Below are positions 1,320 to 62,844 of a stretch of DNA of 64,000 nt, piece by piece. A program made the position numbers and the translations under genes. Below the pieces are notes generated by a model. The model was given only the letters and a program-made list of their open reading frames with translations, had not been told where the DNA came from and did not search any database. This DNA is from an uncultured Actinomycetota bacterium (GTDB taxonomy: Bacteria; Actinomycetota; Actinomycetes; JAFAQI01): contig CAVYQE010000002.1 in NCBI GenBank assembly GCA_963770565.1, forward strand, positions 480,001 to 544,000, in the 5' to 3' direction. Each line of letters starts with the position of its first letter. Position 1 is the first letter of the stretch.

Positions 1320-1380
1320 GTTGATCATGGCGTTTGACGCGATCTGAAGCCCGATTTGGCCGCTGTTCGCCATGATCAAC
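1320..1380. repeat. Family A palindromic element, copy A1 (61 bp)
   Basis: GTTGATCATGGCG ... CGCCATGATCAAC terminal inverted repeats; the right arm contains the stop codon of the 1376 gene. Confidence 0.9.
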
Positions 1381-1870
1381 TGGGCGGGAGCTGTTGGTAG
1401 ACACCGACCAGCAGGCCGTAGCGCGGCTGGTCGGCACCGGCCTCTTCCGCATCGACGACGAGCTCAGCGAGGCTGGCGGCGATCGCCTCAGCCTGCTTCG
1501 TCGTGAGTCGCAGGTGCCGCAGTGTCAGCAAGGGCTCCGGCGCCGCGTCGGCGATTTCGGCGGCCACCGCTTGAAGGGCGGCAGCGATCGGAGCCGGCTG
1601 GTCGTCGGGGATCCTCATGACCGGTGCGACCCGCTGGTAGTAGCGCTCGGTTCCGCCGCGCACGGTCCGAGTGGACACGAGTGTGACGAGGCCGGCATCG
1701 CAGAGCGACTTCAAGTGGTGCGCGACGTTGCCCTTGTTGGTGCCGACCACACTCGCGAGCTGGCTGATCGTTGCCGGCTCGCTCAGCTCGAACAGCAGCC
1801 GCTGCCGGGTCGGGTGCGAGAGCGCCTTGAAATGCGCGGGCTGAGAAAGCTCCATCGGTCGGTCGGTCAC
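1376..1870 (-). CDS. ArsR-type winged-helix transcriptional regulator
   Basis: KALSHPTRQRLL...ATISQLA...NVAHHLKSLCDAGLV...RTVRGGTERYY; start GTG 1870 or ATG 1855. Confidence 0.85.
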   Translation of the reverse strand: MTDRPMELSQPAHFKALSHPTRQRLLFELSEPATISQLASVVGTNKGNVAHHLKSLCDAGLVTLVSTRTVRGGTERYYQRVAPVMRIPDDQPAPIAAALQAVAAEIADAAPEPLLTLRHLRLTTKQAEAIAASLAELVVDAEEAGADQPRYGLLVGVYQQLPPS

Positions 1871-1874
1871 GAAC

Positions 1875-1920
1875 TCAAGTGTTGATGCTTCTTGACGCTT
1901 TCGCAAGCCGATGGTTTCCT
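1875..1920. promoter_or_regulatory. Candidate operator (TCAAG-N11-CTTGA) overlapping a putative -35 TTGACG of the S41 peptidase gene
   Basis: Inverted repeat 1875-1879/1891-1895 between divergent regulator and peptidase; TTGACG 1892, 17-bp spacer, weak -10 TTTCCT 1915-1920, GTG 7 nt later. Confidence 0.4.
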
Positions 1921-1927
1921 CGACGCC

Positions 1928-2836
1928 GTGAACCGCAACGAGACCTCCGGAGTCATCGACGAGGTGATCCGGCTAATGGAGGCGCACTATCTCGACCCCG
2001 TGGTCGCTGCCGAGATCGTGCGCATCCTCAGAGCCCGACCCGCCGACGAGCCCTATCCCTCAGATCCAGCCGCGCTCGCCGATGCCGTGACCGCAGATCT
2101 CCAGTCGGTCAACGGCGACAAGCACCTCAGGCTGATCCATCACGAGAACGCACTGCCCGAACGTGCGCCCGGCGACGATGCCGAGGAATACGCGGCGATG
2201 GCGCGCTGGGTCGACCAGACCTGCGCCGGGATCTCCAGGGTCGAGGCGCTGCCGGACAACGTGGGGTACGTCGAGATCCATCCGGTCCTGTTTCCGGTCG
2301 CGCTCGCCGGCGACGCGGTCTCCGCGGCGATGAGCCTGGTCGCGTCCACAGACGCGCTGATCATCGACGTACGCCGCTGCCTTGGCGGTGAGCCGGCCAT
2401 GGTCGCGTGGTTGTGCAGCTACCTCTACGACCGCGATCCTGTTCAGCTGACCGGCCTCCAAGAGCGCGCCGTCGTCACCCAGTCCTGGACCCTTCCGTTC
2501 GTCCCGGGCCGACGGTTCGGCGCGTCCAAACCGGTCTATGTGCTGACGAGCGCAACGACGTTCTCCGGAGGGGAGCAGCTGAGCTACGACCTGCAGCAGC
2601 TCGGCCGCGCCACGATCGTCGGCGAGACGACCCGAGGTGGCGCACATGCCCGCGAGGGTTTCCGGGTGCACCCACACCTCGAGGTGACGATCTCGGTCGC
2701 CCGCGGTCACAACCCGATTTCCGGCGGCAACTGGGAAGGCACCGGCGTCACGCCTGACGTCGCAGTACCTGCGGACGAGGCACTGGCCTGCGCACAGTCC
2801 CTCGCGCGCGATCATCTCGGCGCGGACGTCGGATAG
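1928..2836 (+). CDS. S41 family peptidase (IRBP-like)
   Basis: LIIDVRRCLGGEP, VYVLTSATTFSGGE, IVGETTRGGAH, NWEGTGVTPDV motifs; ORF track start 1892, GTG 1928 preferred. Confidence 0.9.
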   Translation: MNRNETSGVIDEVIRLMEAHYLDPVVAAEIVRILRARPADEPYPSDPAALADAVTADLQSVNGDKHLRLIHHENALPERAPGDDAEEYAAMARWVDQTCAGISRVEALPDNVGYVEIHPVLFPVALAGDAVSAAMSLVASTDALIIDVRRCLGGEPAMVAWLCSYLYDRDPVQLTGLQERAVVTQSWTLPFVPGRRFGASKPVYVLTSATTFSGGEQLSYDLQQLGRATIVGETTRGGAHAREGFRVHPHLEVTISVARGHNPISGGNWEGTGVTPDVAVPADEALACAQSLARDHLGADVG

Positions 2837-2869
2837 CCGGCAGCTCGGAGGCTCAGGCGCTCGCCACGG

Positions 2870-4144
2870 TCACGAGTCGTGAAGGGCGTAGATGTCGAGC
2901 GTCGACGATTCGGGCACCCGGTTCGGCGCCCTGACCACAGCGATCCGACCATCTCCGATCGCAAGCCCGCTCGTGGCGAACGGCCACAGCCGGGTGATGA
3001 CCTGCCCGCTCGACGCACTCAGAACCTTTCCGTCAGCCAGGTACAGCACGCGACCAGCCGTCGATGCGAGCGTCGATGAGTCCGCCGTTTGCCACAGCCT
3101 GACACCGGTCATCTCGAGATAACCGCAGACCACCGACGCCCCGCACTTGACGTACACGGCGCGATCGTCGACGGCCAGCACGTTTGTAGCTCCCGAAAGG
3201 TGGAATCGCGTGATCCCGGTCGTGGCGTCAAGATCGCTGATCGAGTCATTCCCGCTGAGACCGTTGATCACGTACACGTGCCCGTCGGCTCCGTCGTCGC
3301 TGCCGCGGATGACCCGCCAGCGCCCGGGACGCGTCCAGATCCGCTCACCGGAGATCAGACTGAGCGCTTCGAGTGACGTCGAGCCGGCGCCGCGGTCGCA
3401 GGCCGTGACAATCACCAGGCTGTGTACCACGGCCAGTGGCTGGTGGCTCGCGCAATCCTGGTGTTGGGTCCAGAGCAGCTGCCCGGAGAAGGCCTTGTAG
3501 ACCGAGATGGTCTGTCCGTCGCCGGCGGCTGGACCAGTTTCGACGAGAAACGGCTTGGACTCCACCATTTCGGCGACCGGGCCCAGCTCCGGGCAGTTGT
3601 TGGGTGGGCAGGACGACTGTCCCGGACCGATCGCCCAGGCGGGTTTGCCGGTCGCTGTGTTGAAGGCGTACATCACGCCGGCGTCAGGCGCGTTCCGACA
3701 CTCACGTCCGGACACGACGACCAGACCCTCGCCAACCGCCAGGGACGAGAGCTCGATCGCGCGCGCAGAGTTTGGTTTTGCTCGCCAGACAAGCGCTCCG
3801 GTCTGCGCGTTGTACATTGTGACCTGGCCGTTTTCGATCGCGAACAGCCGACTGCTGGTGAAGGCGGGCGAGCGCATCAGCGGGCGCCCCGGGCAACGCG
3901 ATGCATCAGTCGGAGCCGCGAGAACCTTCCAGAGCGCCGTGTGCGCCACCGTCTGAGGGGTCAGCGTCGACTCGATTGGGTTGGCCCGACTCAGCGCGGC
4001 GTCACCGTCGGTCTGCGCCCACGGAAGTGCCGTCGGTCCCGACACTGGCCGAAGCTCCCCCGTGACGTCGAGAAGGCCGATCGCGACGACCGCCGAAACC
4101 GCCATGGAGATCCCGACACCGAACACCCGCCACATCACCCTCAT
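2870..4144 (-). CDS. Secreted PQQ-like beta-propeller repeat protein
   Basis: N-terminal hydrophobic segment; repeated AxTGxxxW blades (NAQTGALVW, NTATGKPAW, AFSGQLLW, LISGERIW, EMTGVRLW). Confidence 0.75.
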   Translation of the reverse strand: MRVMWRVFGVGISMAVSAVVAIGLLDVTGELRPVSGPTALPWAQTDGDAALSRANPIESTLTPQTVAHTALWKVLAAPTDASRCPGRPLMRSPAFTSSRLFAIENGQVTMYNAQTGALVWRAKPNSARAIELSSLAVGEGLVVVSGRECRNAPDAGVMYAFNTATGKPAWAIGPGQSSCPPNNCPELGPVAEMVESKPFLVETGPAAGDGQTISVYKAFSGQLLWTQHQDCASHQPLAVVHSLVIVTACDRGAGSTSLEALSLISGERIWTRPGRWRVIRGSDDGADGHVYVINGLSGNDSISDLDATTGITRFHLSGATNVLAVDDRAVYVKCGASVVCGYLEMTGVRLWQTADSSTLASTAGRVLYLADGKVLSASSGQVITRLWPFATSGLAIGDGRIAVVRAPNRVPESSTLDIYALHDS

Positions 4145-4294
4145 CAGCAGGTTCTCTCAATCGACAACCGCACAGGAGCGTGCCCCCACCTTCGGTGCAG
4201 CCGGCGCCGTCACCATGGGCGGCGACGTCTCAACGTATCTGCGGAGGCAAAGGCTCGTTCGGAATTTGCCGAATTGGCTGCCGATCGACGACGT

Positions 4295-5365
4295 TTACCG
4301 CTGATTGGCGGCCGCCGGCAGGGCCGGCGCCGGCTGGTGCATCGCCATCGGCCGGATTACCCGGCTGATCGTCTGGTCACGCCCGGTGGCCTTGGCGGCG
4401 TACAGCGCTTCGTCGGCGGCGCGGTAGGTGTCGGACGGCGCGCGGCCGACTTCGTGGACCGTGACACCGGCGCTCAAGGTGGCGAGCGGCGCACGAGCCC
4501 GCCACCCCGACACCACGCGATCAACAGATGCGTAAACCTGGGTCCGGTCGGGCTGGCGGAGGATCAGCATGAACTCCTCGCCACCCATCCGCGCGACGTC
4601 GTCGCCGACCCGGACCTGGGCGCGCAGGAACTCACCGAGCTCCTGGAGCACCTGGTCGCCGCGCGCATGGCCGAACCGGTCGTTCACCACTTTGAAGTGG
4701 TCGAGATCGAGCAGCGCCAGCGCATCGCCGGGCTGGAGGCGATCGAGCATCTGGTTGCCGAATCGGCGGTTGCCGAGTCCGGTCAGGTCGTCGGTGAGGT
4801 TTGCTTTCGCGAGTGCATCGACCGCGCGTTGCTGCTCGCGCGCCAGCTTGTGGGTTGCGTCGACGTTGGCGGCGATCACCTCGCCGGCCAGCACGGCGAC
4901 CGGGATGATCAGCACGACCGCGCCGATCGAGCCCGACGCCTCCGGCGCGCCGAATGCATACGGCAGGAGGTACGCCGCAACCGCGAACGGCGACATTGCG
5001 AGGCAGGTCCCGCGCCGATGCCAGGAGCCGATCCAGAGGAAGACCAGCACGAACCAGATCCCCAGCGTCGGCACCGGCAACGCGCCGACGACGTTGTTGA
5101 GTGCGATAGCGGCCATGCCCAGCAGCGCGAGCAGCAGGGACCGGTATCCGGTCAGTCGGTTTGCCAAGCGGGAGAACCCGAGCAGGCCGATCAAGAGGTC
5201 GGCCGAGTCCAGCAGTTTGCTGCCATGACCGACCGCGGCCGGCATGAAGTCAGTGATCAAACCGAGGGCGCCGGCCACGACGAACAGCACCGCGGCCTGC
5301 CGGACGGCGCGATGGTCGGACGAGGGGGCGACGTCACCCTGACGGCGCCTCCAGTGAATCGTCAC
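4295..5365 (-). CDS. Membrane-bound diguanylate cyclase (GGEEF)
   Basis: About six TM helices then TDDLTGLGNRR, DLDHFKVVNDRFGH, RVGD I-site, GGEEF, ADEALYAAK. Confidence 0.92.
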   Translation of the reverse strand: MTIHWRRRQGDVAPSSDHRAVRQAAVLFVVAGALGLITDFMPAAVGHGSKLLDSADLLIGLLGFSRLANRLTGYRSLLLALLGMAAIALNNVVGALPVPTLGIWFVLVFLWIGSWHRRGTCLAMSPFAVAAYLLPYAFGAPEASGSIGAVVLIIPVAVLAGEVIAANVDATHKLAREQQRAVDALAKANLTDDLTGLGNRRFGNQMLDRLQPGDALALLDLDHFKVVNDRFGHARGDQVLQELGEFLRAQVRVGDDVARMGGEEFMLILRQPDRTQVYASVDRVVSGWRARAPLATLSAGVTVHEVGRAPSDTYRAADEALYAAKATGRDQTISRVIRPMAMHQPAPALPAAANQR

Positions 5366-5454
5366 CGCAGGATCATCGGCATTCCGCGTCGGTGACCTAA
5401 CGCCGGCGCTGGCGCAAGCGCACGGGCACGGTTAGGCCGAACGACGTAGTGCGC

Positions 5455-5589
5455 TCAGACGCGGTGTCCGGTCAACACGTGTGCGATACCGACAATCAGG
5501 GCCAGGATCAGGCCGAGCCACAGTATGTGCGCGGCAAAGCCGAGCCCGGCAAACAGGACGAGCAGGATGATGGCGACGATCAACAGCAC
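5455..5589 (-). CDS. 44-aa hydrophobic small membrane protein
   Basis: GTG 5589 after AGGAG RBS; MLLIVAIILLVLFAGLGFAAHILWLGLILALIVGIAHVLTGHRV. Confidence 0.7.
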   Translation of the reverse strand: MLLIVAIILLVLFAGLGFAAHILWLGLILALIVGIAHVLTGHRV

Positions 5590-5647
5590 GGCGGTCTCCT
5601 CAGAGTCGGGCCCGAGGGCCAGGGTAGTTTGGCGTGGATGACGCGAT

Positions 5648-5848
5648 TCACTTGCTGGGTGTCGGGAGCTTGCAGTGCACCTTCGGGTTGGCGCCGACGT
5701 AGTTGAGCGGGCCCGCAACGATCGTGACCGCGGTCGTGCTGTCCTTCGCGCAGTTGGTCGCCTTGCCGCTGTAGTAGTGACGCTGACCGGCAGCCAGCGC
5801 ACCGATGACGAGCCAGACGATCACGAGCATTCCGAGCAGCCTGAACAT
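5648..5848 (-). CDS. 66-aa small secreted/membrane protein with two Cys
   Basis: GGAGG RBS; signal-like N-terminus, then NC...TIVAGPLNYVGANPKVHC. Confidence 0.75.
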   Translation of the reverse strand: MFRLLGMLVIVWLVIGALAAGQRHYYSGKATNCAKDSTTAVTIVAGPLNYVGANPKVHCKLPTPSK

Positions 5849-6026
5849 GTCAAACCTCCCAATCGCGGCGTGCAGGCGTCACGGCTGTGCGATCGGCAGC
5901 ACAGACGTGATGTGAGTACCTCGCCGACGTGGCAACGTCGACAAAGGTGTTAGCGCGAAGCGTCCATGCCAACGACGAAGATCGGCACCGCTTGCATAAC
6001 GAGGTCATACCCCGCCGCGGCGATGA

Positions 6027-6509
6027 TCATGCCTCGGCGCGCGCCTCAATCCGTGATCGACGCACAACGCGGTGACGACGTCGCGGCGCCTGGAGGGACA
6101 ACAAGCCCAGCGCGGCGATCGCGAGCAACGCCGGCGTAAGGAGCAATCGCCAGGTCGATTGCGGCTTCGCCGCCGCGACCGCGGTGCTCAATGTCGAGGG
6201 ATGTGCTGGATCGGTCACCCCGGTGATCGTCGCCCCCGGCCGATAGCGGCGACTGGTGCCACCGATCACGTCGTCGTACCTGACTCCGGCGAGGCTGAAG
6301 GTGCCATGGCACCGATACCCGGCCACCGTAATACCGGTGCCGGACGCCAGCCCCAGACAGTGGGTGACCGTCACCGGCACCGCAACCCCGTGTCGCTGCA
6401 AGCGGTCGGCACGAACGATCTGATGGACCGCGCCGATCCCGAGCACCAACGCGAGAAGCGCGAACACAGAGACGCAGCCAACCGCGGCCACGCGGGCGAC
6501 CCGACCCAC
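6027..6509 (-). CDS. Two-TM membrane protein (DUF3592-like topology)
   Basis: TM - beta-rich loop with two Cys and DPAHP - TM - Arg-rich tail. Confidence 0.6.
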   Translation of the reverse strand: MGRVARVAAVGCVSVFALLALVLGIGAVHQIVRADRLQRHGVAVPVTVTHCLGLASGTGITVAGYRCHGTFSLAGVRYDDVIGGTSRRYRPGATITGVTDPAHPSTLSTAVAAAKPQSTWRLLLTPALLAIAALGLLSLQAPRRRHRVVRRSRIEARAEA

Positions 6510-6567
6510 CTCGACGTCCGCGCCGGCACCACCGCGGATGTAGCCGGTGCCACGGACAACCGCCGAG

Positions 6568-7175
<608 letters not shown>

Positions 7176-7257
7176 CTTCGATCCAATCGTGGTCCGCCCC
7201 GTCGGCCGGGGCTGAGAGCGGAAGCGAGGTGTTGCAGTCGGCACCCGAGGGCTCGCG

Positions 7258-8721: not shown

Positions 8722-8779
8722 GCCCCCTCAACCAGGAGTCACCCGCTCTGGCGCGGCGCCAGGCTTCATCTCGAGGGGC

Positions 8780-8834
8780 AACCTAGGAACGCCATGTTTC
8801 GCGTCGTTCGCCGCTTTGTTGCGCCCCGGTTAAC
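8780..8834 (-). promoter_or_regulatory. Putative GlnR-type boxes and -10 (TAGGTT) upstream of amt
   Basis: Minus strand TTAAC-n6-GCAAC...CGAAC...GAAAC resembles GlnR a/b sites; TAGGTT at 8785-8780. Confidence 0.5.
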
Positions 8835-8855
8835 TCAAGGCCGGCGAGGCCCCGG

Positions 8856-8942
8856 GCCAAGCAATGTCACATTGCCCCGCACTTCGTGGGGGCAATGTGA
8901 CCCCACCCCCAGGTTTCGCTGGGCAATGTGACATTGCTTGGC
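8856..8942. repeat. Family B triple-core palindromic element, copy B1 (inverted relative to B2-B4)
   Basis: Perfect 22-bp terminal IR GCCAAGCAATGTCACATTGCCC; GT(C/G)AC cores at 8866, 8897, 8928. Confidence 0.95.
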
Positions 8943-8946
8943 GGGG

Positions 8947-24472: not shown

Positions 24473-24553
24473 AGCAATGTCACATTGCCCAGGCGTTTCT
24501 TGGGGTGATGTCACATTCCCCCGGCGATCAGCGGGGCTATGTGACATTGCTTG
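24473..24553. repeat. Family B element, copy B2
   Basis: AGCAATGTCACATTGCCC...GATGTCACATT...TATGTGACATTGCTTGG; cores at 24479, 24510, 24541. Confidence 0.93.
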
Positions 24554-24589
24554 GTACGGCGGGCGGCGCCGCGCTGTCAGACTCAGCTC

Positions 24590-25018
24590 GTGGCGAGCAT
24601 CTGGGGGGTGACCCCGCGCCAGAGCGTCGACGCCGCGTGCGCGCGGGTGGGCGTGTCCGGGGTGGTCACGCTCTGTGTGGCGATTCTCGGCGGCGAGGAG
24701 GTCGACCCGGCCTTCCTGCTAGTGATCGGTGGGCCTGGCGCGCGCAACGTTCTCGACGGCCGCGAAGGCGGAGTGACCGGCTGCTGGCCGCGGACCTGGG
24801 CGCTTCGAGCCCTGCTCTACGCGTGGGACGAGCAAGCAAGTGCCATGGTGCTCGCGGCGACGACCGACGAACATTGGCGGGTGCGCGAGATGGCCGCCAA
24901 GGTGATCGCGAAACACCAGCTCGACGAAGGGCTGGAGGCGGTCGGGCACCTGCGCGCGGACCCGGTTCCCCGGGTACGCGCCGCCGCCGCCAGGGCACAA
25001 CGCCGCCTCACCGAATAG
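24590..25018 (+). CDS. HEAT-repeat protein
   Basis: WPRTWALRALLYAWD, DEHWRVREMAAKV, DPVPRVRAAAARA; CAGACT 6 nt before GTG suggests leaderless. Confidence 0.8.
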   Translation: MASIWGVTPRQSVDAACARVGVSGVVTLCVAILGGEEVDPAFLLVIGGPGARNVLDGREGGVTGCWPRTWALRALLYAWDEQASAMVLAATTDEHWRVREMAAKVIAKHQLDEGLEAVGHLRADPVPRVRAAAARAQRRLTE

Positions 25019-25023: not shown

Positions 25024-25107
25024 AAAGCAATGTCACATCGCCCAGAGGATCGTGGGGGTGGAGTCACATTGCCCCCACGAAGTGCGGGGCAATGTGACAT
25101 TGCTTGG
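25024..25107. repeat. Family B element, copy B3
   Basis: Cores at 25032, 25063, 25094; nearly the reverse complement of B1 including spacer CCCCCACGAAGTGCGGGG. Confidence 0.95.
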
Positions 25108-30211: not shown

Positions 30212-31807
30212 GTGCGCACGTTGACAGCTGCGGCTGCCGCGGGTCTGGTCGCGAGCGGGCTGGTATCCATCGCACCCGCACAAGCAGTTGCGGCGCACCG
30301 GGCCACCACGTTCGCCTCAACGATTCACTGGTCGACCTGCCCGAGTGCGGTCGAGCAACTGCCGAACGAGACGGTCCGCTGTGCAGCGCTCAAGGTGCCG
30401 ATGGACTACAGCGACCCGACCGGCACGCAGATCACCCTCGAGCTCTCGCTGGTGCGCCACACCTCGTCGGCGCAGAACTACCGCGGGGTGATGCTCTCGA
30501 ACCCCGGCGGCCCGGGTGGGATCGGCATCGACGACGGGCCCGAGCTCGCGCCGGACGTTCCGCATCACGTCGGTGCGGACTACGACTGGGTCAGCTGGGA
30601 TCCGCGCGGCGTCGGGACCAGCCGGCCGGCGATCCATTGCCAGAACACCTACTTCACCGCACCTCGCCGCAGCTACGTACCGACCACCAAGAGCTTGCTG
30701 CACTACTGGCTGAAGCGGGCGAAGTCCTACGCCGACGCATGCGAGCGGAAGTACCCCGAGTTGCTCGCCAACATGACCACGATCGACTCCGCGATGGACA
30801 TGAACTCGATCCGGCAGGCGCTCGGCGTCGCGCAGGTCAGCTACTACGGCTTCTCGTACGGGACCTACCTCGGCCAGGTGTTCTCGACGCTGTACCCGAC
30901 GCACCTGAAGTACATGGTCCTCGACAGCAACGTCGACCCGCGCCGGATCTGGTATCGCGCAAACCTCGAACAGGACCGGGCCTTCAACCGCAACATCAAC
31001 ATCTACTTCCGCTGGGTCGCAAAGCACGACCGCGTGTTCCACCTCGGCGCGACCGGGCACGCGGTATCGACGCGCTACTACGCGACCGTGGCGGCATTGA
31101 CCAAGCATCCCGACGGCAATCTCGGCCCCGATGAATGGTCCGACGCCTTCCTCGACACCGGCTACTTCACCTTCAACTGGATCGATGTGGCCAACGCCTG
31201 GCACGCGTTCGCGTTCCACGGCAAGACCGGCCCGATCCTCCAGCAGTATCGCTACGCCGACGGTCCGGGCAACGACAACGAATTCGCCGTCTACAACGCG
31301 GTCCAGTGCACCGACGTCCAATGGCCGACTGCGTGGAGTCGATGGAAGAAGGACAACGACGCGTACGCGAAGAAGTATCCGTTCTTCACCTGGGCGAACG
31401 CCTGGTTCAACGCGCCCTGTCTCTATTGGGGCGCAAAGGCCGGCAAACCGCTGACGATCAACGGCAACGCAACCAAGAGTGTGCTGCTGATCGACGAGAC
31501 CGACGATGCCGCCACGCCGTACCCGGGCAGCCTCGAGGTACGCCGGCTCTATCCGCACTCGAGCCTGATTGCCGAGCCCGGCGGCACCGCCCACGCCGAC
31601 TCGCTCAGCGGCAACGCCTGCGTCGACGACAAGATCGCGACGTACCTCGAGACCGGGCAGCGACCTTCGCGCAAGGACTGGAACGGCCCGGACGCGCTGT
31701 GCAAGCCGTTGCCCGATCCCACCCCAGTCCAGTTGATCATGGCGAAAAGCGCGAAGAAGTCGCCGAAAAGCGCGCGGTTCGCCATGATCAACAGCCGCGA
31801 GCGGTAG
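30212..31807 (+). CDS. Secreted alpha/beta-hydrolase, TAP-like tripeptidyl aminopeptidase
   Basis: Signal peptide; NPGGPG, DPRGVG, GFSYG nucleophile elbow, DAATP, C-terminal His. Confidence 0.9.
   Translation: MRTLTAAAAAGLVASGLVSIAPAQAVAAHRATTFASTIHWSTCPSAVEQLPNETVRCAALKVPMDYSDPTGTQITLELSLVRHTSSAQNYRGVMLSNPGGPGGIGIDDGPELAPDVPHHVGADYDWVSWDPRGVGTSRPAIHCQNTYFTAPRRSYVPTTKSLLHYWLKRAKSYADACERKYPELLANMTTIDSAMDMNSIRQALGVAQVSYYGFSYGTYLGQVFSTLYPTHLKYMVLDSNVDPRRIWYRANLEQDRAFNRNINIYFRWVAKHDRVFHLGATGHAVSTRYYATVAALTKHPDGNLGPDEWSDAFLDTGYFTFNWIDVANAWHAFAFHGKTGPILQQYRYADGPGNDNEFAVYNAVQCTDVQWPTAWSRWKKDNDAYAKKYPFFTWANAWFNAPCLYWGAKAGKPLTINGNATKSVLLIDETDDAATPYPGSLEVRRLYPHSSLIAEPGGTAHADSLSGNACVDDKIATYLETGQRPSRKDWNGPDALCKPLPDPTPVQLIMAKSAKKSPKSARFAMINSRER
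31732..31792. repeat. Family A element, copy A2 (inside the peptidase 3' end)
   Basis: GTTGATCATGGCGAA-N31-TTCGCCATGATCAAC. Confidence 0.93.
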
Positions 31808-44620: not shown

Positions 44621-44687
44621 TGATCTTCGCCTCGGTGACCGGTTTTCGCTCGACTCGCCGTAGAAGTGGTCGCGAGCGCGAAGATCA
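44621..44687. repeat. Family A-like variant palindromic element (D)
   Basis: TGATCTTCGC...GCGAAGATCA(AC) with further imperfect pairing to GACC/GGTC. Confidence 0.6.
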
Positions 44688-44700: not shown

Positions 44701-44735
44701 CGAAGGGGCGGTCCCTGATCGGGACCGCCCCTTCG
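44701..44735. terminator. Intrinsic terminator hairpin downstream of groEL
   Basis: Perfect 15-bp stem CGAAGGGGCGGTCCC-TGATC-GGGACCGCCCCTTCG, no U-tract. Confidence 0.85.
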
Positions 44736-46633: not shown

Positions 46634-46785
46634 CGCCAAACCTGTCCGTCGGAGTGCGTGAACCGAACCCATCGGACAGGCTCGGGGACCCATCAGTAAC
46701 CCGAAGCGCACGCGCTTCTTGGGGTGAAGCCGCTCCGGCGGCCGGGCTAGCCACGGCCCGAACCCGACAGCTAACCCGGTCGGCG
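46634..46785 (+). ncRNA. c-di-AMP (ydaO/yuaA) riboswitch
   Basis: CGCC...CGGGGACCCA...TGGGGTGAA...CCCGAACCCGACAGCTAACCCGGTCGGCG conserved blocks; upstream of a cell-wall hydrolase. Confidence 0.9.
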
Positions 46786-46798
46786 TCGGAGAGCATCC

Positions 46799-47407
46799 AT
46801 GTCCCGAACGACCCTGCGTGTCCGCTCGGCCGTCCTCAGCGCATCCGTCATCGCCTGCCTCGGCGTCGCCGCAGCGCCAGCTGCTGCTGCGACCTCAACC
46901 GCCGGGCCGGCCTCGATCTCGTCCTCCCCGGGGGGCTGGCAGTTCGCCGCCAGGGCCCCCGGCACGCCTCGCCTGCGAGGCGCGAAGCTCACCGTCATCC
47001 AGCGCCACAACCTCGAGGTCCAGAAAGTGCTCCGCGAGGCCAGGCGCCAGAAAGGCAAGCCGTACGTGTACGGCGCCGACGGCCCCAACGGCTTCGACTG
47101 CTCGGGCTTCGTCCGCTTCGTGTTCCTGCACGCCGTACACAAGTCGTTGCCGCACAACGCTGCGCAGCAGTACCACGCGCTTCGCCACATCCGGCGTGGC
47201 AGCCTTCAGCTCGGCGATCTGGTCTTCGTCGACAACGGCGGCTACATCTCCCACGTCGGGATCTACGACGGCCACCACCACTGGTGGGTCGCCCCGCACA
47301 CCGGGCTACGGGTGCAGCGTCAGCGGATCTACCACGCGCACTTCGTCTACGCCCGCGTGCTGGTCTACGACAAGGTCCTCACCCACAAGCAGCGCCACAA
47401 GCACTAA
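46799..47407 (+). CDS. Secreted NlpC/P60 (C40) peptidoglycan endopeptidase
   Basis: Signal peptide; GKPYVYGA, FDCSGF, GDLVF, HVGIY. Confidence 0.93.
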   Translation: MSRTTLRVRSAVLSASVIACLGVAAAPAAAATSTAGPASISSSPGGWQFAARAPGTPRLRGAKLTVIQRHNLEVQKVLREARRQKGKPYVYGADGPNGFDCSGFVRFVFLHAVHKSLPHNAAQQYHALRHIRRGSLQLGDLVFVDNGGYISHVGIYDGHHHWWVAPHTGLRVQRQRIYHAHFVYARVLVYDKVLTHKQRHKH

Positions 47408-47417: not shown

Positions 47418-47502
47418 CAAAGCAATGTCACATTGCCCAGCGCTTTGTGGGGGTGCGGTCACATTGCCCCCGCGATCAGCGGGGCAATGTGACATTGCTT
47501 GG
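47418..47502. repeat. Family B element, copy B4
   Basis: Cores at 47427, 47458, 47489; between convergent genes. Confidence 0.95.
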
Positions 47503-49032: not shown

Positions 49033-49045
49033 CGGAGCCTTCCGT

Positions 49046-49153
49046 CTCATCTTCCCCGCACGCAACTCGCGCACGAGCCGGAGTTGGCACCTGCCCGCCG
49101 TCGGGTGGTTGCCGGGGCTTCACCGGGCCGGTCCCTCTGCCCCTCTTGATGAG
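49046..49153 (-). ncRNA. SAM-I riboswitch
   Basis: Minus strand CTCATCAAGAG...GAGGGACCGGCCC...TGAAGCC..GGCAACC...GGTGCCAACTCC...AAGATGAG; P1 CTCATC/GATGAG. Confidence 0.95.
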
Positions 49154-49234
49154 TGCGCGACCCGAGGGCCGCGCAGATCAAGTCTGCCACAACGGCGTCG
49201 ATTACTGTCAGCCGCAGTGGGCAACGACAACGGC

Positions 49235-52694: not shown

Positions 52695-52767
52695 GACGGA
52701 CTCCCGCGACTTGAACTGGACCTCGAGAACTACAGCAGTGTCATTCTGGCACGGCGCGCCCGCAACG

Positions 52768-55943: not shown

Positions 55944-55944
55944 G

Positions 55945-56016
55945 AGCCCCGTGTCCGGATCGAACGGACGACCTGCCGCTTACAAGGCGGCTGCTCTACC
56001 ACTGAGCCAACGGGGC
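55945..56016 (-). tRNA. tRNA-Thr(TGT), CCA not encoded
   Basis: GCCCCGT/ACGGGGC acceptor, GCTCAGTGGTAGAGC D-arm, GCCGC-CTTGTAA-GCGGC anticodon arm, GTTCGATCC T-loop. Confidence 0.97.
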
Positions 56017-56050
56017 GCAACGATGGTTCAGGGTATCCGCGGCCCTTCGA

Positions 56051-56818
56051 CTACGCGGTCGCCGAAGCAGCCGCGGCCGCCTCGTCCGCCTGCGGCTCGT
56101 CGTCGTCGGCACCCGCGAAGAAGTAGCGGTATGCCCCCGCGGCCAGGATGCCGCCGACCAGCGGCGCAAGGATGAAGACCCAGACCTGCTTGATCGCGTC
56201 GTGACCGATGATCAGCGCCGGCCCGAGACTCCGCGCCGGGTTCACCGACGTACCGGTCAGGGGGATGCCGATGAGGTGGACCACGGTCAGGGCGAGGCCG
56301 ATCGCGAGCCCGGCGAAGCCCGGCGATCCGAGCCGGCTGGTCGCGCCGAGCACGACGAAGACGAAGAGGAAGGTCAGGATCGCTTCGGCCAGGAAGGCCC
56401 CGCCGGCGTTGATGCCGATCATCGAGTTCTTGCCGTAGCCGTCCGTGCCAAGGCCGACGCTCGCACGGCTGTAGATCGGCGAGGTCGAGAAGACGCCCCA
56501 CAACACCAGCGCGCCCACGATCCCACCCAGGAACTGCGCGAACCAGTAGCCGACCGCCTCCTCGAGCGACATCCGCCCCGATGCGAAGAAGCCCATCGTC
56601 ACGGCCGGGTTGACATGGCAGCCCGAGATCGGGCCGATCGTGTAGGCGAGCGCCAGCACGGTGAGCCCGAAAGCCATCGCGGTCGCCACCACGCCGGCCG
56701 ACAGGCTGGCACCGGCCAGCTTGAACCCGAAGCTCAACGTCGCGACACCGACCGCGAAGATCACCAGAAGCGCCGTACCAAGGAATTCGGCTGCGAGCTT
56801 GCGCACGTCCATGTCCAC
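56051..56818 (-). CDS. aqpZ: Aquaporin (MIP family)
   Basis: AEFLGT, ISGCHVNPAVT, GTSVNPARS. Confidence 0.93.
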   Translation of the reverse strand: MDMDVRKLAAEFLGTALLVIFAVGVATLSFGFKLAGASLSAGVVATAMAFGLTVLALAYTIGPISGCHVNPAVTMGFFASGRMSLEEAVGYWFAQFLGGIVGALVLWGVFSTSPIYSRASVGLGTDGYGKNSMIGINAGGAFLAEAILTFLFVFVVLGATSRLGSPGFAGLAIGLALTVVHLIGIPLTGTSVNPARSLGPALIIGHDAIKQVWVFILAPLVGGILAAGAYRYFFAGADDDEPQADEAAAAASATA

Positions 56819-56893
56819 TCCCCAGTTCGGACAAACCAGACCTGCCAGGCTTGACGATAGCTAGTCAGGCGCCGAAACCGGGACACTGACGCG

Positions 56894-58507
56894 GTGAGCA
56901 ACACCCGCGGTCTGACCCGCCGGCGCGCCCTCGGCCTGATCGCCGGGGCCAGTGCCTCCACCGCGCTGGCCGGCTGCCACTCCTCGACCAAGACCGGCGC
57001 GAAGCCGCCACCCGGCTCGCCCTCGATCAGCGGCTCGCCCGGGCTCTCGCCGACGCCGAACGCCTCGGCGACCGGCGTCCGGCCGGTCGACTGGCACGCC
57101 CTGCGCCGGTCGCTCAGCGGCGACCTTCGGCGGCCGGGGAGCGCGGGCTACAACGCGGCGCGGATCCTCTTCGACCGTCGGTACGACACGGTGATGCCGG
57201 CCGCCGTGGTCCAGGTGGCGAGCGAGGCCGATGTCGCGGCGAGCATCGCGTTTGCGCACCGCTTCGGCCTCCCGCTCCGGATCCGGTCCGGGGGCCACTC
57301 CTATGTCGGGCAGTCGATCGGCCCGGGACTGGTCATCGACCTGAGGGCGATCAACAGCATCTTGATCGACGAATCGGCGGGGACCGCGACGATCGGCGCG
57401 GGAGCCGCGCTCGTCGACGTCTACTCCGCGCTGGCCGCGCACGGAGTCTCCATCCCGGCCGGCTCCTGCCCGTCGGTCGGGCTGTCCGGATTGACTCTCG
57501 GCGGCGGCATCGGCGTGGTCGCCCGCCGCTACGGCCTGACCTGCGACCGGCTGCTCTCGGCCCGGATCGTCACCGCCGACGGCACCACGCTCACCTGCAG
57601 CCCGACCAGCCACTCGGATCTCTACTGGGCACTGCGTGGCGGCGGTGGCAGCTTCGGTGTGGTCACCTCGCTGACGCTCGGAACCCACCGCGCCGACCCG
57701 CTCGCGCACGCGTTCCTCACCTGGCCGTGGTCGGCAGCTGCCGAGGTCGTGGCCGGCTGGCAGCCGTGGGCGATCGCCGCGCCGCGCTCGCTCTGGTCGA
57801 GCGCGCACATCCTCGCCACCGACGGCGGCGGCGACGCGACGATCTCGGTGGCCGCAGTGATGGTGGCGAGCGAGGCGGCGCTTCAGCAGCAGATCGGCAC
57901 TCTCGTGCACTCGATCCGTACGCCGCCCAAGGTCAACTTCGTCGCGAGCGAGAGCTACGAGGCGACCATGATGCTCGAGAGCGGTTGCGCAGCGTTGTCC
58001 GTGGAGTCGTGCCACGTGGCGGACGAGACACCCGGCGGCACGCTGCCCCGGGACGCGTTCGTGGCCGGCTCGGACTTCTTCACCCACCCGATCCCGGCAG
58101 CCGGGATCACCGCGCTGGTGACCGCGGTCGAGCAGCGGCAGAACGACCCGCGGCTCGGGGCCGGCGGCGCGTCGCTGGACATCCTCGGCGGGGCGGTGGA
58201 CGACCTGGCGCCGAGCGCGACCGCCTGGGTCCACCGCGGCGCGTTGTTCGACGCGCAATACACCGCGTCCTGGGGCACCACGCCCGGCAACGGCCCGCTG
58301 GCCCGCAACCAGCACTCACTGGCCACGATCCACGGCGCGCTACGCCCGTACGCGTCCGGGCAGGCCTACCAGAACTACGCGGACGAGACGCTCGCCAATC
58401 CGCAGCGGGCCTACTACGGGGCCAACCTGCCGCGCCTGATCGACGTACGCCGGACCTACGACCCGCACGGCGTGTTCACGCAGCCGCAAGGCGTCCCGTT
58501 GGCGTGA
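56894..58507 (+). CDS. Tat-exported lipoprotein, BBE-like FAD oxidase
   Basis: TRRRAL Tat motif, LAGC lipobox, RSGGHSY, GSCPSVG, LYWALRGGGG, AYQNY, YYGANL...YDP. Confidence 0.92.
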   Translation: MSNTRGLTRRRALGLIAGASASTALAGCHSSTKTGAKPPPGSPSISGSPGLSPTPNASATGVRPVDWHALRRSLSGDLRRPGSAGYNAARILFDRRYDTVMPAAVVQVASEADVAASIAFAHRFGLPLRIRSGGHSYVGQSIGPGLVIDLRAINSILIDESAGTATIGAGAALVDVYSALAAHGVSIPAGSCPSVGLSGLTLGGGIGVVARRYGLTCDRLLSARIVTADGTTLTCSPTSHSDLYWALRGGGGSFGVVTSLTLGTHRADPLAHAFLTWPWSAAAEVVAGWQPWAIAAPRSLWSSAHILATDGGGDATISVAAVMVASEAALQQQIGTLVHSIRTPPKVNFVASESYEATMMLESGCAALSVESCHVADETPGGTLPRDAFVAGSDFFTHPIPAAGITALVTAVEQRQNDPRLGAGGASLDILGGAVDDLAPSATAWVHRGALFDAQYTASWGTTPGNGPLARNQHSLATIHGALRPYASGQAYQNYADETLANPQRAYYGANLPRLIDVRRTYDPHGVFTQPQGVPLA

Positions 58508-58596
58508 CCCCACGCATGGCCCATTGGTGGGGTCATAGCGCCACCCATGGCCCATCGGTGGGGCGATAGGCCCACCAATGGGCCATGCGTGGGTCA
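58505..58596. repeat. Family C triple-core palindromic element
   Basis: ATGG(C/G)CCAT cores at 58516, 58547, 58578; long terminal IR; ends coincide with both flanking stop codons. Confidence 0.92.
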
Positions 58597-59541
58597 GTGG
58601 GAACGGCGCCGGCGGGCGATCTCGGCGAGCGCGATCCCGGTCGCGACCGAGGCGTTGAGCGACTCGACCGCGGAGTGCAGTGGGATCCGTACGGTCAGGT
58701 CGCAGGTCTCGGCGACCAGCCGTGACAGGCCCTTGCCCTCGGCACCGACCACGAGGACCAGCGGGCTGGTCGCGAGCTCCAGCCCGTCGAGGTCGATCTC
58801 ACCGCGGCCGTCGAGCCCGGCCAGCATCAAACCCGCCTCGGCGTAGGACTTCAGGGTCCGCACCAGGTTGGTCACCCGGGCGACGGGCAGATGCGCCAAG
58901 GTGCCGGCACTCGCCTTCCAGGCGGCCGGGGTCACCCCGACCGCACGCCGCTCGGGAAGGAGCAGGCCGTGCGCGCCGAACGCGCTGGCGGATCTCGCAA
59001 TCGCACCGAGGTTGTGCGGATCTGTGACGCCGTCGAGCGCGACGATCAGGGGCGGGTCCGGCTCTTCGAGTACCCGCCGGAGCAGGTCGGACGCCTCGAT
59101 GTAGTCGAACGGCCGCACGAGGAGGGCGACCCCTTGATGCGGGGCGTCGCCCGCGATCCGGTCGAGGTCGAGCCGCGAGACGTCCTGCACCACGACCTCG
59201 CGGGCACCGGCCAGCTTTCGCGCCTCGACGATTCGCTCGTCGTGCGCCAGCCCGGTCGCGACATAGAGCGTCGTGGCCGGCACCGATGCCCGCAGCGCCT
59301 CGACGACCGCGTTGCGACCGGCGACCAGCTCGTCCATCCCGGGTGGGCGCCGCCGCGACCGCGAGCCGCCCGCCCCACCCGAGCTGCTGCGAGCCGCCTG
59401 TGCACGTTTCGCCGCGCTTCGCGCCGCCCGCGCGGCCGGATGCTTCGGCCGCTCGTGCGCCGGCGGGGTCGGGCCGCGTCCTTCGAGCCGGCGCCGGCCG
59501 TGCCCGCCGGTGCCCTTGATCGGACCCTTCTTTCCGGCCAT
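58594..59541 (-). CDS. rlmB: 23S rRNA G2251 2'-O-methyltransferase
   Basis: GRNAVVEAL, HQGV, LDGVTDPHNLGAIARS, GAEGKG, ESLNASVA. Confidence 0.96.
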   Translation of the reverse strand: MAGKKGPIKGTGGHGRRRLEGRGPTPPAHERPKHPAARAARSAAKRAQAARSSSGGAGGSRSRRRPPGMDELVAGRNAVVEALRASVPATTLYVATGLAHDERIVEARKLAGAREVVVQDVSRLDLDRIAGDAPHQGVALLVRPFDYIEASDLLRRVLEEPDPPLIVALDGVTDPHNLGAIARSASAFGAHGLLLPERRAVGVTPAAWKASAGTLAHLPVARVTNLVRTLKSYAEAGLMLAGLDGRGEIDLDGLELATSPLVLVVGAEGKGLSRLVAETCDLTVRIPLHSAVESLNASVATGIALAEIARRRRSH

Positions 59542-60917
59542 CAGCCGACGTACCAGCGCGGGCCCTGCGGGGTGTCCTCGACCACCACGCCGGCATCGGT
59601 CAGGGCATCGCGGATCCGGTCGCTTTCGGCGAAGTCCTTGCGCTCGCGTGCGGTCTGCCGTGCTTCGAGCAACGCTGGAACGATCGCCTCCACCACCTGC
59701 CGCAGCGCAGAATCGTTGGAATCATTGGCAAAATCGCCTGGCCACAAACCCAGGACGCGAGTCATCGCAGCGACCTCGGCGAGCGACTGCCGGCCGGCCG
59801 CCTCGTCGCCGTCGGCCAACGCACTGTTGCCGACCCGTACCGCCTCGTGCAGGACGCCGAGGGCGGCCGGCACGGCAAGGTCGTCGTCCATCGCATCGAC
59901 GAACGCCTGCGGTGGCGCTGCGTCGTCGGGCGCCGCGCCGTACCGTTCGGACGCCCGCTGGATGAAGCCTTCGATCCGGGAGTACGCCGCATCGGCCTCG
60001 ACGAGTCCGGGCTCGCTCCACTCCGTGTCGGAGCGATAGTGCGGCGCGGCCAGCGCGTAACGCAGCGCCGGGGCCCGAGCAGCGGCAAGCAGGTCGGCCA
60101 CGAACAGCGAGTTGCCGAGCGACTTGCTCATCTTCGTGCCGGAGGTGTTGAGCATGCCGTTGTGCAGCCAGAACCGCGCGAACCCGTCACCGACCGCCTT
60201 CGACTGCGCGAGCTCGTTCTCGTGGTGCGGGAAGACCAGGTCGAGGCCGCCACCGTGAATGTCGAACACCGGCCCCAGGTACTTGGTCGCCATCGCGGAG
60301 CACTCGATGTGCCAGCCCGGGCGACCCGGGCCCCACGGCGTCTCCCAGAACGGCTCGCCCGGCTTCGCTCCTTTCCATAAGGCGAAGTCGCGCGGGTCAC
60401 GCTTGGCGCCGGCGTCCTCAGACGGCTGCATCGCGTCGGGGCGCTGGCCGGACAGCTCGCCGTACGGCGAGTAGGACCGCACGTCGAAGTAGACGTCGCC
60501 ACCGGCAGCGTAGGCGTGGTCCGCGTCGATCAACCGCTGGATCAGCTCGACGATCTCGGGGATGTGCCCGGTCGCGCGTGGCTCGCCGCTCGGCTCCAGG
60601 TTGTTGAGCCCGCGGTATCCAGCCTGGAACTGCCGGGTCATCTCGGTGCCGAGCGCCCACCACGGCACGCCCTGGGCGGCGGCGTTGACGAGCACCTTGT
60701 CGTCGATGTCGGTGACATTGCGCAGGTGCACCACGTCGTACCCGCTGGCGGCTAACCAGCGGCGGACGATGTCCGAGGCGACCGCTGACCGCATGTGCCC
60801 AATGTGCGGCGCGGACTGCACGGTGGGGCCGCAGACATACATCGTCACCGCGCCGGGAAGCACCGGCTCGAAGTCGGCGATCGCCCGGCGTCGGGTGTCA
60901 TACAACCGCAGCGCCAC
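59541..60917 (-). CDS. cysS: Cysteine--tRNA ligase
   Basis: [36 protein letters not shown]; TAGGCT 7 nt before GTG. Confidence 0.98.
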
Positions 60918-60999
60918 GCGGTGCAGCCTAAGGCGGTTCGTGAGTCACCCGCCGCACCACCGCAGCACGAATGCCTCGAGACCCGATCAGAAAGACCGT

Positions 61000-61611
61000 T
61001 CAGCCGTGGTTCGAGCCCATCACGTGGTCGGCGAACATCTCGACCGCGCTGTCGACCAGCCGGAGATAGCGGTCGCCTCCGGGTTGGTTGGCGAGCTGCT
61101 GGCCTGCCACCCCTGCAACGACCGCGGTCCACAGGTCGAAATCAGCGTCGCTTCGAAGCCCGGCCTTGCGCAGCACCGTCCGTCCCCGGGTGAACACCTC
61201 GACCGCGGTCGCGTACGACTCCGCCGTCGGCTCGAAATCGGGGATCGTGCGCATGAACAGCAGCTCGTAGCGGGCCTGGTCCTCGGCGGCGAAGGTCACG
61301 AAGAGGCGGGCGGTCGAGCGAAGGAGTTCACGGGGGTCGTCGCTGAGCTCGAGCAGTTCGAACCTGGCTAGCAACTCACGGTTGGCATCGGCGAACAGCC
61401 GATCGTAAACAGCGTGCTTCGACGCGAAGTACGTGTAGAGCGACGGCGGCTCCATGTTCACCGCTTTCGCCAAAGCCCGAAGTGACAGCGCGTTGAGCCC
61501 CTGGGCCCGGATCATCGCCCAGGCGGCATCGACGATCTCCTGCTTGGTGGTCTCATGTCGCAATCGGCGCCGGTCACGGCGGCCGGATCCGACCGGGACA
61601 GTCGCGGGCAC
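61000..61611 (-). CDS. TetR/AcrR family regulator
   Basis: EIVDAAW...LSLRALAKAVNMEPPSLYTYFASK. Confidence 0.93.
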   Translation of the reverse strand: MPATVPVGSGRRDRRRLRHETTKQEIVDAAWAMIRAQGLNALSLRALAKAVNMEPPSLYTYFASKHAVYDRLFADANRELLARFELLELSDDPRELLRSTARLFVTFAAEDQARYELLFMRTIPDFEPTAESYATAVEVFTRGRTVLRKAGLRSDADFDLWTAVVAGVAGQQLANQPGGDRYLRLVDSAVEMFADHVMGSNHG

Positions 61612-61641
61612 GGATTGACTTTAGCCGATCCCCGTACGATC

Positions 61642-61660
61642 ATCCTAACAGTATTTGGAT
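61642..61660. promoter_or_regulatory. Candidate TetR operator
   Basis: ATCCTAACAGTATTTGGAT imperfect palindrome in the divergent intergenic region. Confidence 0.6.
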
Positions 61661-61693
61661 TTCCGAACGACAATCGACATAGGGGATTGCGCC

Positions 61694-62455
61694 GTGACCA
61701 TCACTCAGACGACAGCCGTCGACGCGATCCGGGTCGGGCCGCTGCACCACACCGAGGCCATGAGGCTGGCGGAGACCGAGTTCGGCCGCATGGTGACCGG
61801 ACTGCGCGGCCTGTCCGTACAGGACTGGAACCGCGACACGGTGTGCTCGGGGTGGGACGTGCGTGCGATGGCGTCGCACGTATTGGGCATGGCCGAAGCA
61901 CAGGCCTCGATTCGGCAGTTCGCGCATGACTATCGGGCGGCTCAGAAGCGCTCCACCGGCAAGATGATCGACGCACTGACCGGGACTCAGGTCCGCGAAC
62001 GATCGGCTATGACCGGAGCCGAGATCGCAGACGCCCTCGCCGTCATCGCCCCGAAGGCGGTGCGGGCGCGGCGGCGAACCCCGGCCCTCGCGCGCTGGGC
62101 AGTCCGGATGAAGCAGGATCCGCCCTTCGACGCGGAGCGCTGGCGATACGGCTATCTCGTCGACACGATCTTCACCCGCGACACGTGGCTGCACCGGCTC
62201 GACATCAGCCGCGCAACCGGTCAGCCCATGGTCCTGTCGGCCGACCACGACGGTCGGCTCATTGCCGACGTAGTCGCGGACTGGGCGCGCCGGCACGGCA
62301 AGCCCTTCAGACTGTCGCTCACCGGAGTCGCCGGCGGAAGCTGGTACGCCGGCAGCGGCGGCGACACGATCGAGATGGACGCCCTCGACTTCTGCTGGAC
62401 GGTCGGGTCGCGCGAACCCGGCGCCGGCCTGCTTGCCACCGAGGTTCCGTTCTGA
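61694..62455 (+). CDS. Mycothiol-dependent maleylpyruvate isomerase (MDMPI/DinB) family protein
   Basis: DWNRDTVCSGWDVRAMASHV, DTWLHRLDI. Confidence 0.88.
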   Translation: MTITQTTAVDAIRVGPLHHTEAMRLAETEFGRMVTGLRGLSVQDWNRDTVCSGWDVRAMASHVLGMAEAQASIRQFAHDYRAAQKRSTGKMIDALTGTQVRERSAMTGAEIADALAVIAPKAVRARRRTPALARWAVRMKQDPPFDAERWRYGYLVDTIFTRDTWLHRLDISRATGQPMVLSADHDGRLIADVVADWARRHGKPFRLSLTGVAGGSWYAGSGGDTIEMDALDFCWTVGSREPGAGLLATEVPF

Positions 62456-62748
62456 TGGTTACCACCACGATCACCCGCTTCCACGCGGCGGCCGGACGTG
62501 AGGACGCCCTGAGAGCACTGGCGACCCTGGGCCGTGACCGAATGCGGACCGCCGACGGGTGCACGTCGTTCGACCTGCTTCAGGACGAGGCCGACCCCCG
62601 TGCCTTGATCTTCATCCAGCATTGGGTGTCGCACGAGGCACACGACACCGCGTTCGCGCAGCGCATCGTCACGACCGGCCACCTCGACAAAGTGCTCGCT
62701 GCGATCGATGAGCCGATCGTTCAGCACTCATACCAGACCACGGCGTAG
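62455..62748 (+). CDS. Antibiotic biosynthesis monooxygenase (ABM) family protein
   Basis: TGATG overlap; GREDAL...DGCTSFDLLQD...FIQHWVSHEAH. Confidence 0.85.
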   Translation: MVTTTITRFHAAAGREDALRALATLGRDRMRTADGCTSFDLLQDEADPRALIFIQHWVSHEAHDTAFAQRIVTTGHLDKVLAAIDEPIVQHSYQTTA

Positions 62749-62779
62749 CACCGAGCGGGCCAGAGTCCGCCACCAAGCC

Positions 62780-62844
62780 GAGTTGATCATGGCGAAGAGC
62801 GCGCTTTTCCCGCGATTCTTCGCGGGTTTCGCCATGATCAACTC
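62780..62844. repeat. Family A element, copy A3
   Basis: GAGTTGATCATGGCGAA-N31-TTCGCCATGATCAACTC; inner segment resembles the reverse complement of that in A2. Confidence 0.93.

Follow-up and report, generated by a model that had tools for sequence, protein, structure and literature searches.

Phased palindromic repeats of a soil actinobacterium bracket nuclease-like genes of their own and look REP-like

The dispersed palindromic repeats of an uncultured soil actinobacterium bracket nuclease-like genes, each repeat type a gene of its own, and therefore look like repetitive extragenic palindromic (REP)-style repeats that are served by an enzyme class other than the known transposase. The window examined here is a stretch of 64 kb (G000:C2:480001-544000) of the source assembly G000 (4.43 Mb, 95% complete), and iterated nhmmer searches of it return exactly nine elements: three of type A, four of type B and one each of types C and D. 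Their cores lie 51 bp (A), 31+31 bp (B and C) and 61 bp (D, from GATC to GATC) apart, and the nine elements and four types of the initial annotation are all recovered, with the same positions and spacings. Six homologous partner genes are present in G000, of which five are intact, and each intact one is bracketed by its own dispersed type (A, B, C, G or H).

Repeat types and their partner genes

Gene and repeats form a cassette of ~1.1 kb, composed of a palindrome, a DnaA-box-like site, one gene and a second palindrome. The sole DUF559 match in G000 (C6:37407-37592) has an A element on each side, the two being separated by 959 bp. Related genes are bracketed by B elements on contig C1, at a distance of 1061 bp, and by C elements on C11, at a distance of 1032 bp; the B and C proteins are 45% identical, and in both genes the downstream repeat copy overlaps the stop codon. 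Profile searches add a G-flanked gene (C11:452 kb) and an H-flanked gene (C1:1048 kb). All five intact genes are single-copy in G000, and the sixth family member (C8:50128-51152) is broken by a stop and a frameshift and has decayed flanks. With profiles from 144 homologues, no partner genes of types D, E and F were found in G000. Homologues bracketed by D repeats are present in three relatives (G010, G013 and G014), and one bracketed by E repeats is present in G003, a congener ~90% identical to G000; at the site of this E cassette only the right end of the E element remains in G000. The initial annotation had supposed that each type is read by its own enzyme encoded outside the window, which agrees with the A, B and C genes of G000 and the D genes of three relatives, and the partner genes are of the DUF559/Vsr-like kind that it named as a candidate. 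Another of its candidates, a RAYT/TnpA-Y1 transposase, finds no support, the Y1 transposase/RAYT profile (PF01797) having no match in the 95%-complete assembly. No toxin gene was found inside the cassettes, and the cassette nearest to either PF08843 (AbiEii) match is over 20 kb away. Among the sequencing runs listed as containing the B cassette none is of RNA, and four DNA runs contain pieces of it; one joint across the cassette has a 21-base side, probably comes from another B copy and hence was not used.

The partner gene is predicted to encode a fusion protein with an AbiEi-like DNA-binding region and a nuclease domain of the Vsr/EDxHD type. In a structure model of the B protein (predicted local distance difference test 91), residues 3-191 match the AbiEi antitoxin (Z 12.9, root-mean-square deviation (rmsd) 5.2, 182 aligned residues) and this region also matches Rv2827c (Z 9.3), while residues 194-301 match 3hrl (Z 12.3, rmsd 2.3, 92 aligned), I-Bth0305I (Z 11.9, rmsd 2.3, 96 aligned) and Vsr (Z 10.4, rmsd 2.4, 100 aligned). 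Two AbiEi monomers are described as binding inverted repeats and bending the DNA (PMC7319586). PADLOC AbiEi profiles match the A, B and C proteins; the Pfam family AbiEi_4 has no match in G000 and no Pfam family at all matches the B, C and G proteins, so that the family assignment rests on structure and PADLOC. E199, D232 and E243 are each conserved in 96-100% of 141 homologues, compared with 71% for H250, and by analogy with the site described in PMC3239194 these residues may form an EDxHD-type site. Of the 172 distinct homologous genes 154 are intact, and dN/dS (non-synonymous to synonymous substitution rates) between G000 and G003 is 0.12 for A and 0.16 for G, compared with 0.02-0.20 for eight neighbouring genes.

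The pairing recurs in the homologues collected from relatives, metagenome contigs and genome records, of which 172 distinct genes were kept and 148 have both flanks. With an upstream/downstream match defined by a score of at least 30, the flanks match each other in 131 of these 148 genes, compared with 2.7% of cross pairs and two of 114 distant control stretches, and in 97 genes the own opposite flank is the best of all 148. Another 21 loci from the wider class include 14 whose flanks match, compared with matches in 10 of 420 cross pairs, and named Tsukamurella and Arthrobacter homologues are bracketed by their own palindromes; homologous loci in named records carry Frankiaceae or Mycobacteriales labels. 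In a tree of 141 proteins every clade has its own repeat architecture, and the repeat type follows the protein tree. Cross-flank pairs are similar in 100% of cases below a tree distance of 0.3, in 68% at 0.3-0.6, in 34% at 0.6-1 and in 15% thereafter, with 2-4% of pairs beyond 1.5; since kin share labels, this trend shows joint inheritance and not by itself co-adaptation. Type A is present in two of 41 genomes, the only two in which the A gene occurs (at 100% and 91%, against 60% for the next best match). Cognate genes of the GAGTGCGAC-type repeat occur in six of its eight carrier genomes and were not seen in G020 and G023, which are 57% and 66% complete. Of 121 class genomes sampled, four of them unpublished, 89 contain homologues, and at an E value of 0.001 the family takes in 17,154 clusters defined at 50% identity.

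The A and G cassettes are syntenic in G003, and across the relatives 133 cassettes carry 124 distinct flank labels. The neighbours of the cassettes, among which a Vsr repair system would include a cytosine methyltransferase gene, vary, and most of them match other G000 genes. Of 26 distinct gaps with a cassette in relatives, nine are occupied by an element or a cassette in G000 too, compared with 190 of all 3765 gaps and 81 of the 590 that are convergent; this reuse may partly reflect shared ancestry. Two gaps are possible hot spots (G000:C11:452106-453340 and C7:84623), carrying cassettes in seven and eight relatives' loci that belong to different clades or lie in both orientations.

The DnaA-box-like site is the hexamer TCCACA, which occurs on either strand within 120 bases upstream of 119 of the 148 genes and in all five clades counted. 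It is found downstream of two of 148 genes, in two of 141 distant stretches, upstream of 163 of 3770 G000 genes and in eight of 196 dispersed elements. These are the last six bases of the actinomycete DnaA box as described in PMC4285127; the origin of replication was not located in the G000 assembly. Judged from the motif, DnaA may bind upstream of the partner genes.

Geometry, placement and turnover of the repeats

Element families were collected by iterated nhmmer over G000, and genes were called with our own hexamer-based caller. The 196 dispersed elements of seven types comprise 27 A, 71 B, 49 C, 16 D, 18 E, nine G and six H copies, none of which scored within a gene by the caller's margin. 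One element per type was folded against 200 shuffles, giving z-scores of -5.6 (A), -7.8 (B), -8.6 (C) and -2.8 (D), and reversed-pattern controls for A and D have no match in 41 genomes; the nine window elements are therefore not chance occurrences. The window elements and 20 cassette loci gave no Rfam match. Another repeat, type F, of which six copies were counted in G000, forms tandem 98-bp units at C1:575965, 677805-678379 and 1276736, C8:73228 and C10:191557, and no partner gene was found for it.

Core spacing was described as never changing; it holds in the window and is nearly, not wholly, invariant genome-wide, being kept in 25 of 27 A elements (51), 85 of 93 C intervals (31) and nine of 14 measurable D elements. 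Among the 71 B elements 49 are at 31+31, 12 are at 62 with a decayed middle core and ten differ. The interiors of 22 A copies are only 60% identical at the median. The centre of the core is C or G only (198 of 198), and one outer core is flipped in 11 of 63 elements. The cores are less unrelated between types than had been thought, those of B and C differing at two of nine positions and A and D sharing a GATC arm motif. The 31+31 arrangement of B and C is partly a tandem unit, of which whole copies are gained or lost between G000 and G003; B and C elements grown to five or six tandem 31-bp units lie at C1:1521928-1522097, C1:622645-622778 and C8:143220-143354.

Across relatives the spacing jumps by about whole helical turns (31 or 52; 57 to 68; 68, 78 and 89). 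In the B/C clade (36 cassettes) it is 30-32 or 51-53 across differing cores, with a lone value of 47 between. The arms of the A clade span 57-58 (24 of 28 measured values) and those of D span 68 on the same anchor. Type E, tallied by hand over 75 distinct copies in ten of 41 genomes, spans 67-68 (5), 76-79 (56), 88-90 (12) or 80-81 (2), with none of the 75 copies at 69-75, 82-87 or 91-96, and its interior shows neither conservation nor self-complementarity. In G005, G006 and G019 the spacings of dispersed copies are 52 (7), 51, 41, 63 and 30+30 (5). Steps of approximately one or two turns fit the binding of duplex DNA better than a hairpin, and the helical phasing read from the window agrees with length jumps in three independent clades.

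With regard to placement, convergent gaps hold 85 of the 196 elements and make up 199 of all 1754 gaps longer than 60 bp, and divergent gaps hold nine of the 196 elements and make up 496 of the 1754 gaps. The median distance to the stop codon is 0-6 bp for types A, B, C, G and H. In the window the claimed location at gene 3' ends holds for eight of the nine elements, which lie at or over a 3' end, five of them between convergent genes, and fails for the D element, which lies between two gene starts.

Turnover was followed mainly against G003. This comparison covered 37 G003 sites, of which three without syntenic flanks were dropped (a second comparison dropped six); L259 is a chance core within a gene, and L175, L178 and one L188 site were scored as having the same orientation on inspection. 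Among the 32 B sites with synteny, 24 have an element of the same orientation in both genomes, four are inverted in place (including the window element at 8856, for which identity to L174 of G003 is 0.85 when inverted and 0.53 direct), two are empty in G000 without clean ends and two are split in G000 by ~0.5 and 1.1 kb. All ten syntenic A sites are shared. As the sites are mostly common to a ~90%-identical congener, the spread is slow. Fixed orthologous positions, which would mark ordinary terminators, are thus seen for most sites in G003, yet the elements are absent at the three window sites that can be aligned in G004, a congener ~77% identical to G000; the A element at 31732, for example, is common to G003 and absent from G004.

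Several rearrangements coincide with cores. For the B pair at 24473 and 25025, which encloses a cargo gene, G003 has a single hybrid element whose left part is that of the first and whose right part is that of the second. The change from one to the other occurs within 8 bases of the middle core, despite longer stretches of identity in the outer cores, and the cargo gene reads as gained at this core; in G004 both the B elements and the cargo gene are missing. The B cassette site holds a single core in G003 and nothing in G001, and solo B cores of the same form lie in G000 at C2:666287, C6:100919 and C2:598868. The gap of the B element at 47420 contains an E-type cassette in G004. Two C elements of G003 join flanks that are far apart in G000, an arrangement for which misassembly is possible. 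Inserts are also seen within or beside B elements: at C6:28741-29860 one is split by ~1.1 kb (an open frame and a G-like hairpin) at a site where G003 has one intact B element, at C11:863868-865704 one is interrupted by ~1.7 kb of DNA, in which an open frame of 500 aa resembles a transposase (a candidate), and another 1.8-kb insert adjoins a B element at C11:85087.

Proposed mechanism, rival explanations and known systems

We hold with moderate confidence that genes and repeats form a two-part, REPIN-like system, selfish or domesticated, in which each protein binds the phased arms and nicks or cuts the cores, and repair seeds or relocates copies. The proposal is built on the observed repeat-gene pairing, the fold, the conserved catalytic-type residues, the phased spacing, the slow and lineage-specific spread and the core rearrangements. 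The cassette would be the autonomous part and the dispersed palindrome the non-autonomous part. By analogy, each of two protein subunits would occupy one arm of the duplex, both on one face of the helix, so that lengths would change in steps of ~10.5 bp around a free interior. The nuclease would nick or cut in or near the cores, where host repair would copy, invert, delete or integrate DNA, planting new elements at gene ends and moving cassettes into gaps, often element-bearing ones. Each protein variant would drift jointly with its own core, which would yield several non-cross-reacting types in one genome, and DnaA may couple expression to replication. A broader proposition, which we put forward only tentatively, is that these are widespread chromosomal replicators, in which an enzyme resembling a homing endonuclease, rather than a transposase, reads the helical geometry of its palindromes, cuts cores under DnaA-linked control, seeds repeats, captures cargo and moves its own gene into repeats already in place. 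If true, this would explain orphan actinobacterial repeats (possibly TRIT) and would give a function to a family of ~17,000 clusters (at 50% identity), for each of which the cognate site could be read.

Several observations weigh against the two-part system. Repeats persist without a gene (D and E in G000, B in G003), the flanks do not match in 17 of the 148 genes, and no palindromes flank a Nonomuraea homologue. Most of the genomes compared belong to one family of uncultured bacteria and are not independent; the phasing likewise rests on few independent jumps, many copies being orthologous, and the type E steps are 10.2 and 11.5. The 30+30 of G006 also counts against the phasing, as do two E elements of G002 and the flank of an E cassette (L161), which lie between classes. 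Among the syntenic B and A sites compared with G003 there was no clean new insertion, and the two B sites empty in G000 look like imprecise losses. Direct repeats of five or more bases in the flanks are no commoner than in cross pairs (61 B, 23 A, nine D and 16 E elements), which gives no sign of target-site duplication, although duplications at old sites may have decayed. Inversion, deletion and changes in unit number at palindromes are possible without a dedicated enzyme, and the inversions and collapses seen here may be spontaneous. Binding, cutting and copying by the enzyme are our inference.

The AbiEi likeness of the N-terminal region, seen both in the fold and in the PADLOC profiles, raises the question of whether the protein binds only as a repressor or organiser, with the flanking palindromes as AbiEi-style operators and the copies spread by another agent. 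AbiEi-type proteins are described as binding inverted repeats in their own promoters (PMC7319586), and phasing and co-variation would require binding alone. We nevertheless regard this as unlikely, because an equal copy stands downstream of the gene (over the stop codon in B and C), the dispersed copies shun promoter gaps and the nuclease residues are kept, with no Y1 transposase match in the genome and no toxin gene in the cassettes. The concentration of copies in convergent gaps and close to stop codons, their strong hairpins and the similar placement described for TRIT (PMC3152330, PMC13714241) would suit elements that act as RNA (terminators, RNase III or decay signals, TRIT-like structures), the gene merely landing in 3' gaps. 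Such a role leaves unexplained why each gene has its own type on both sides, why the type follows the protein tree and why length changes in helical steps with an unpaired interior; moreover, copy-specific compensatory pairing was not found in the elements and orientation bias is absent (17 v 13). It is improbable as the whole explanation, and an RNA role may be a secondary benefit.

AbiEi-like domains and PD-(D/E)XK nucleases are common in defence systems, and the PADLOC matches, the several types per genome and the purifying selection on the genes would also be in keeping with a defence or addiction module, whose nuclease attacks foreign or unprotected DNA and whose palindromes are self marks or decoys. 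However, the cassettes sit singly among housekeeping genes at many loci and not in islands, genes are lost where repeats stay, and the A protein is nearly absent from plasmids and phages (matches in four of 72,556 and one of 50,697 records, respectively), all of which makes a defence module rather improbable. For type B, the core contains GTCACA, and MtrA boxes are described as direct repeats of GTCACA (PMC4285127); that B elements are sites of an ordinary host regulator such as MtrA is nonetheless highly improbable, as a comparison of five congeners and kin found B in G000 and G003 only, its elements lie at 3' ends, and its core belongs to a set of dozens of variants whose distribution follows the nuclease tree.

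The two-part system proposed here resembles REPIN-RAYT systems as described in 10.1101/2021.07.10.451892 and PMC3733652: both have dispersed extragenic palindromes of ~60-100 bp near gene ends, in several types and with slow turnover, and a single-copy chromosomal gene that is flanked by the same repeat and rare on plasmids. The enzyme here is, by contrast, an AbiEi-like and Vsr-like fusion rather than HUH/Y1; inspection of aligned A, B, C and D copies, made with no formal count, found no GTAG or CGTC tag; the spacing is fixed and phased as for duplex binding; and the cassettes occur at many loci in both orientations across the family, which may set them apart from RAYTs, described as staying put within species. 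With the EDxHD homing endonuclease I-Bth0305I, which is described as a dimer that cuts a pseudopalindromic site with a ~60-bp footprint (PMC3239194), the partner proteins share an N-terminal DNA-binding region, a Vsr-like catalytic fold, acidic and histidine residues as we map them onto the motif, and sites of a similar nature. They differ in the kind of DNA-binding region, in gene-less dispersed copies and in a gene that is intergenic between its own palindromes instead of in an intron or intein. AbiE (AbiEi, Rv2827c) shares the fold of residues 3-191 and paired inverted repeats beside the gene (PMC7319586), but in comparison with this type IV toxin-antitoxin the nuclease is fused, no toxin is adjacent and the repeats lie on both sides and genome-wide. 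The elements possess terminal inverted repeats, as in miniature inverted-repeat transposable elements (MITEs) and insertion sequences, and differ from MITEs in that no target-site duplication was found.

Among actinobacteria, Myt-type repeat families are described in Mycobacterium (PMC2267715), as is TRIT, a dispersed palindrome with 147 copies at stop codons and an unsettled mechanism (PMC3152330, PMC13714241). TRIT was compared by its placement; it is described as a terminator or RNase III substrate, and the cited parts of these accounts mention no partner gene. A literature search, which covered few subscription papers, found no description of a link between DUF559, Vsr or AbiEi proteins and palindromic repeats. 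New here are five cognate pairs in one genome, the spacing ladder, the core-centred rearrangements and the DnaA-like site. The spread of REP-like repeats without a RAYT is treated as open for CGTC repeats in the cited part of PMC3733652, and the cassettes offer a concrete candidate for such spread in actinobacteria and a candidate function for a very common 'hypothetical/DUF559' protein. The more than 130 natural enzyme-site pairs, with a spacing rule and a predicted cut region, could serve as a natural library for the study of shifts in nuclease specificity. The repeats also appear to reshape genomes, as they invert, capture genes and coincide with synteny breaks.

Features of the window and other observations

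The window elements are listed in Table 1 together with other features. The D element is flanked by a minus-strand GNAT acetyltransferase gene and a long plus-strand gene, both of which start from the gap.

Table 1. Repeat elements and further features of the 64-kb window
Feature	Position	Strand	Remarks
Type A element	1320..1380		61 bp, 12-13 bp arms, 51-bp spacing; convergent gap; same site in G003 (L262)
Type B element	8856..8942		Three cores of 9 bp, 31+31; interior flipped in place compared with G003
Type B element	24473..24551		Left bracket of cargo gene
HEAT-repeat cargo gene	24551..25018	+	Between two B elements
Type B element	25025..25105		Right bracket of cargo gene
Type A element	31732..31792		Read through in last codons of alpha/beta hydrolase gene (30212-31807)
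Type D element	44621..44687		67 bp; divergent gap; partner gene in G010, G013 and G014
Separate hairpin	44701-44735		35 bp, 15-bp arms; just past D element, same divergent gap
c-di-AMP riboswitch	46651-46800	+	Ahead of NlpC/P60 gene
Type B element	47420..47500		Convergent gap that holds whole type E nuclease cassettes in relatives
SAM (S-adenosylmethionine) riboswitch	49044-49155	-	
tRNA	55945-56016	-	
Type C element	58509..58593		Array of 31-bp units, 2.8 copies; convergent gap; absent in G004
Type A element	62780..62844		Convergent gap

Elsewhere in the assembly, the region G000:C1:1-~400000 holds no A-H elements. It has a GC content of 62-64% (67-70% elsewhere), far more AATT, palindrome families of its own and a CRISPR-like array at 235.6-243.1 kb, and has the look of sequence from a different organism attached to this contig.

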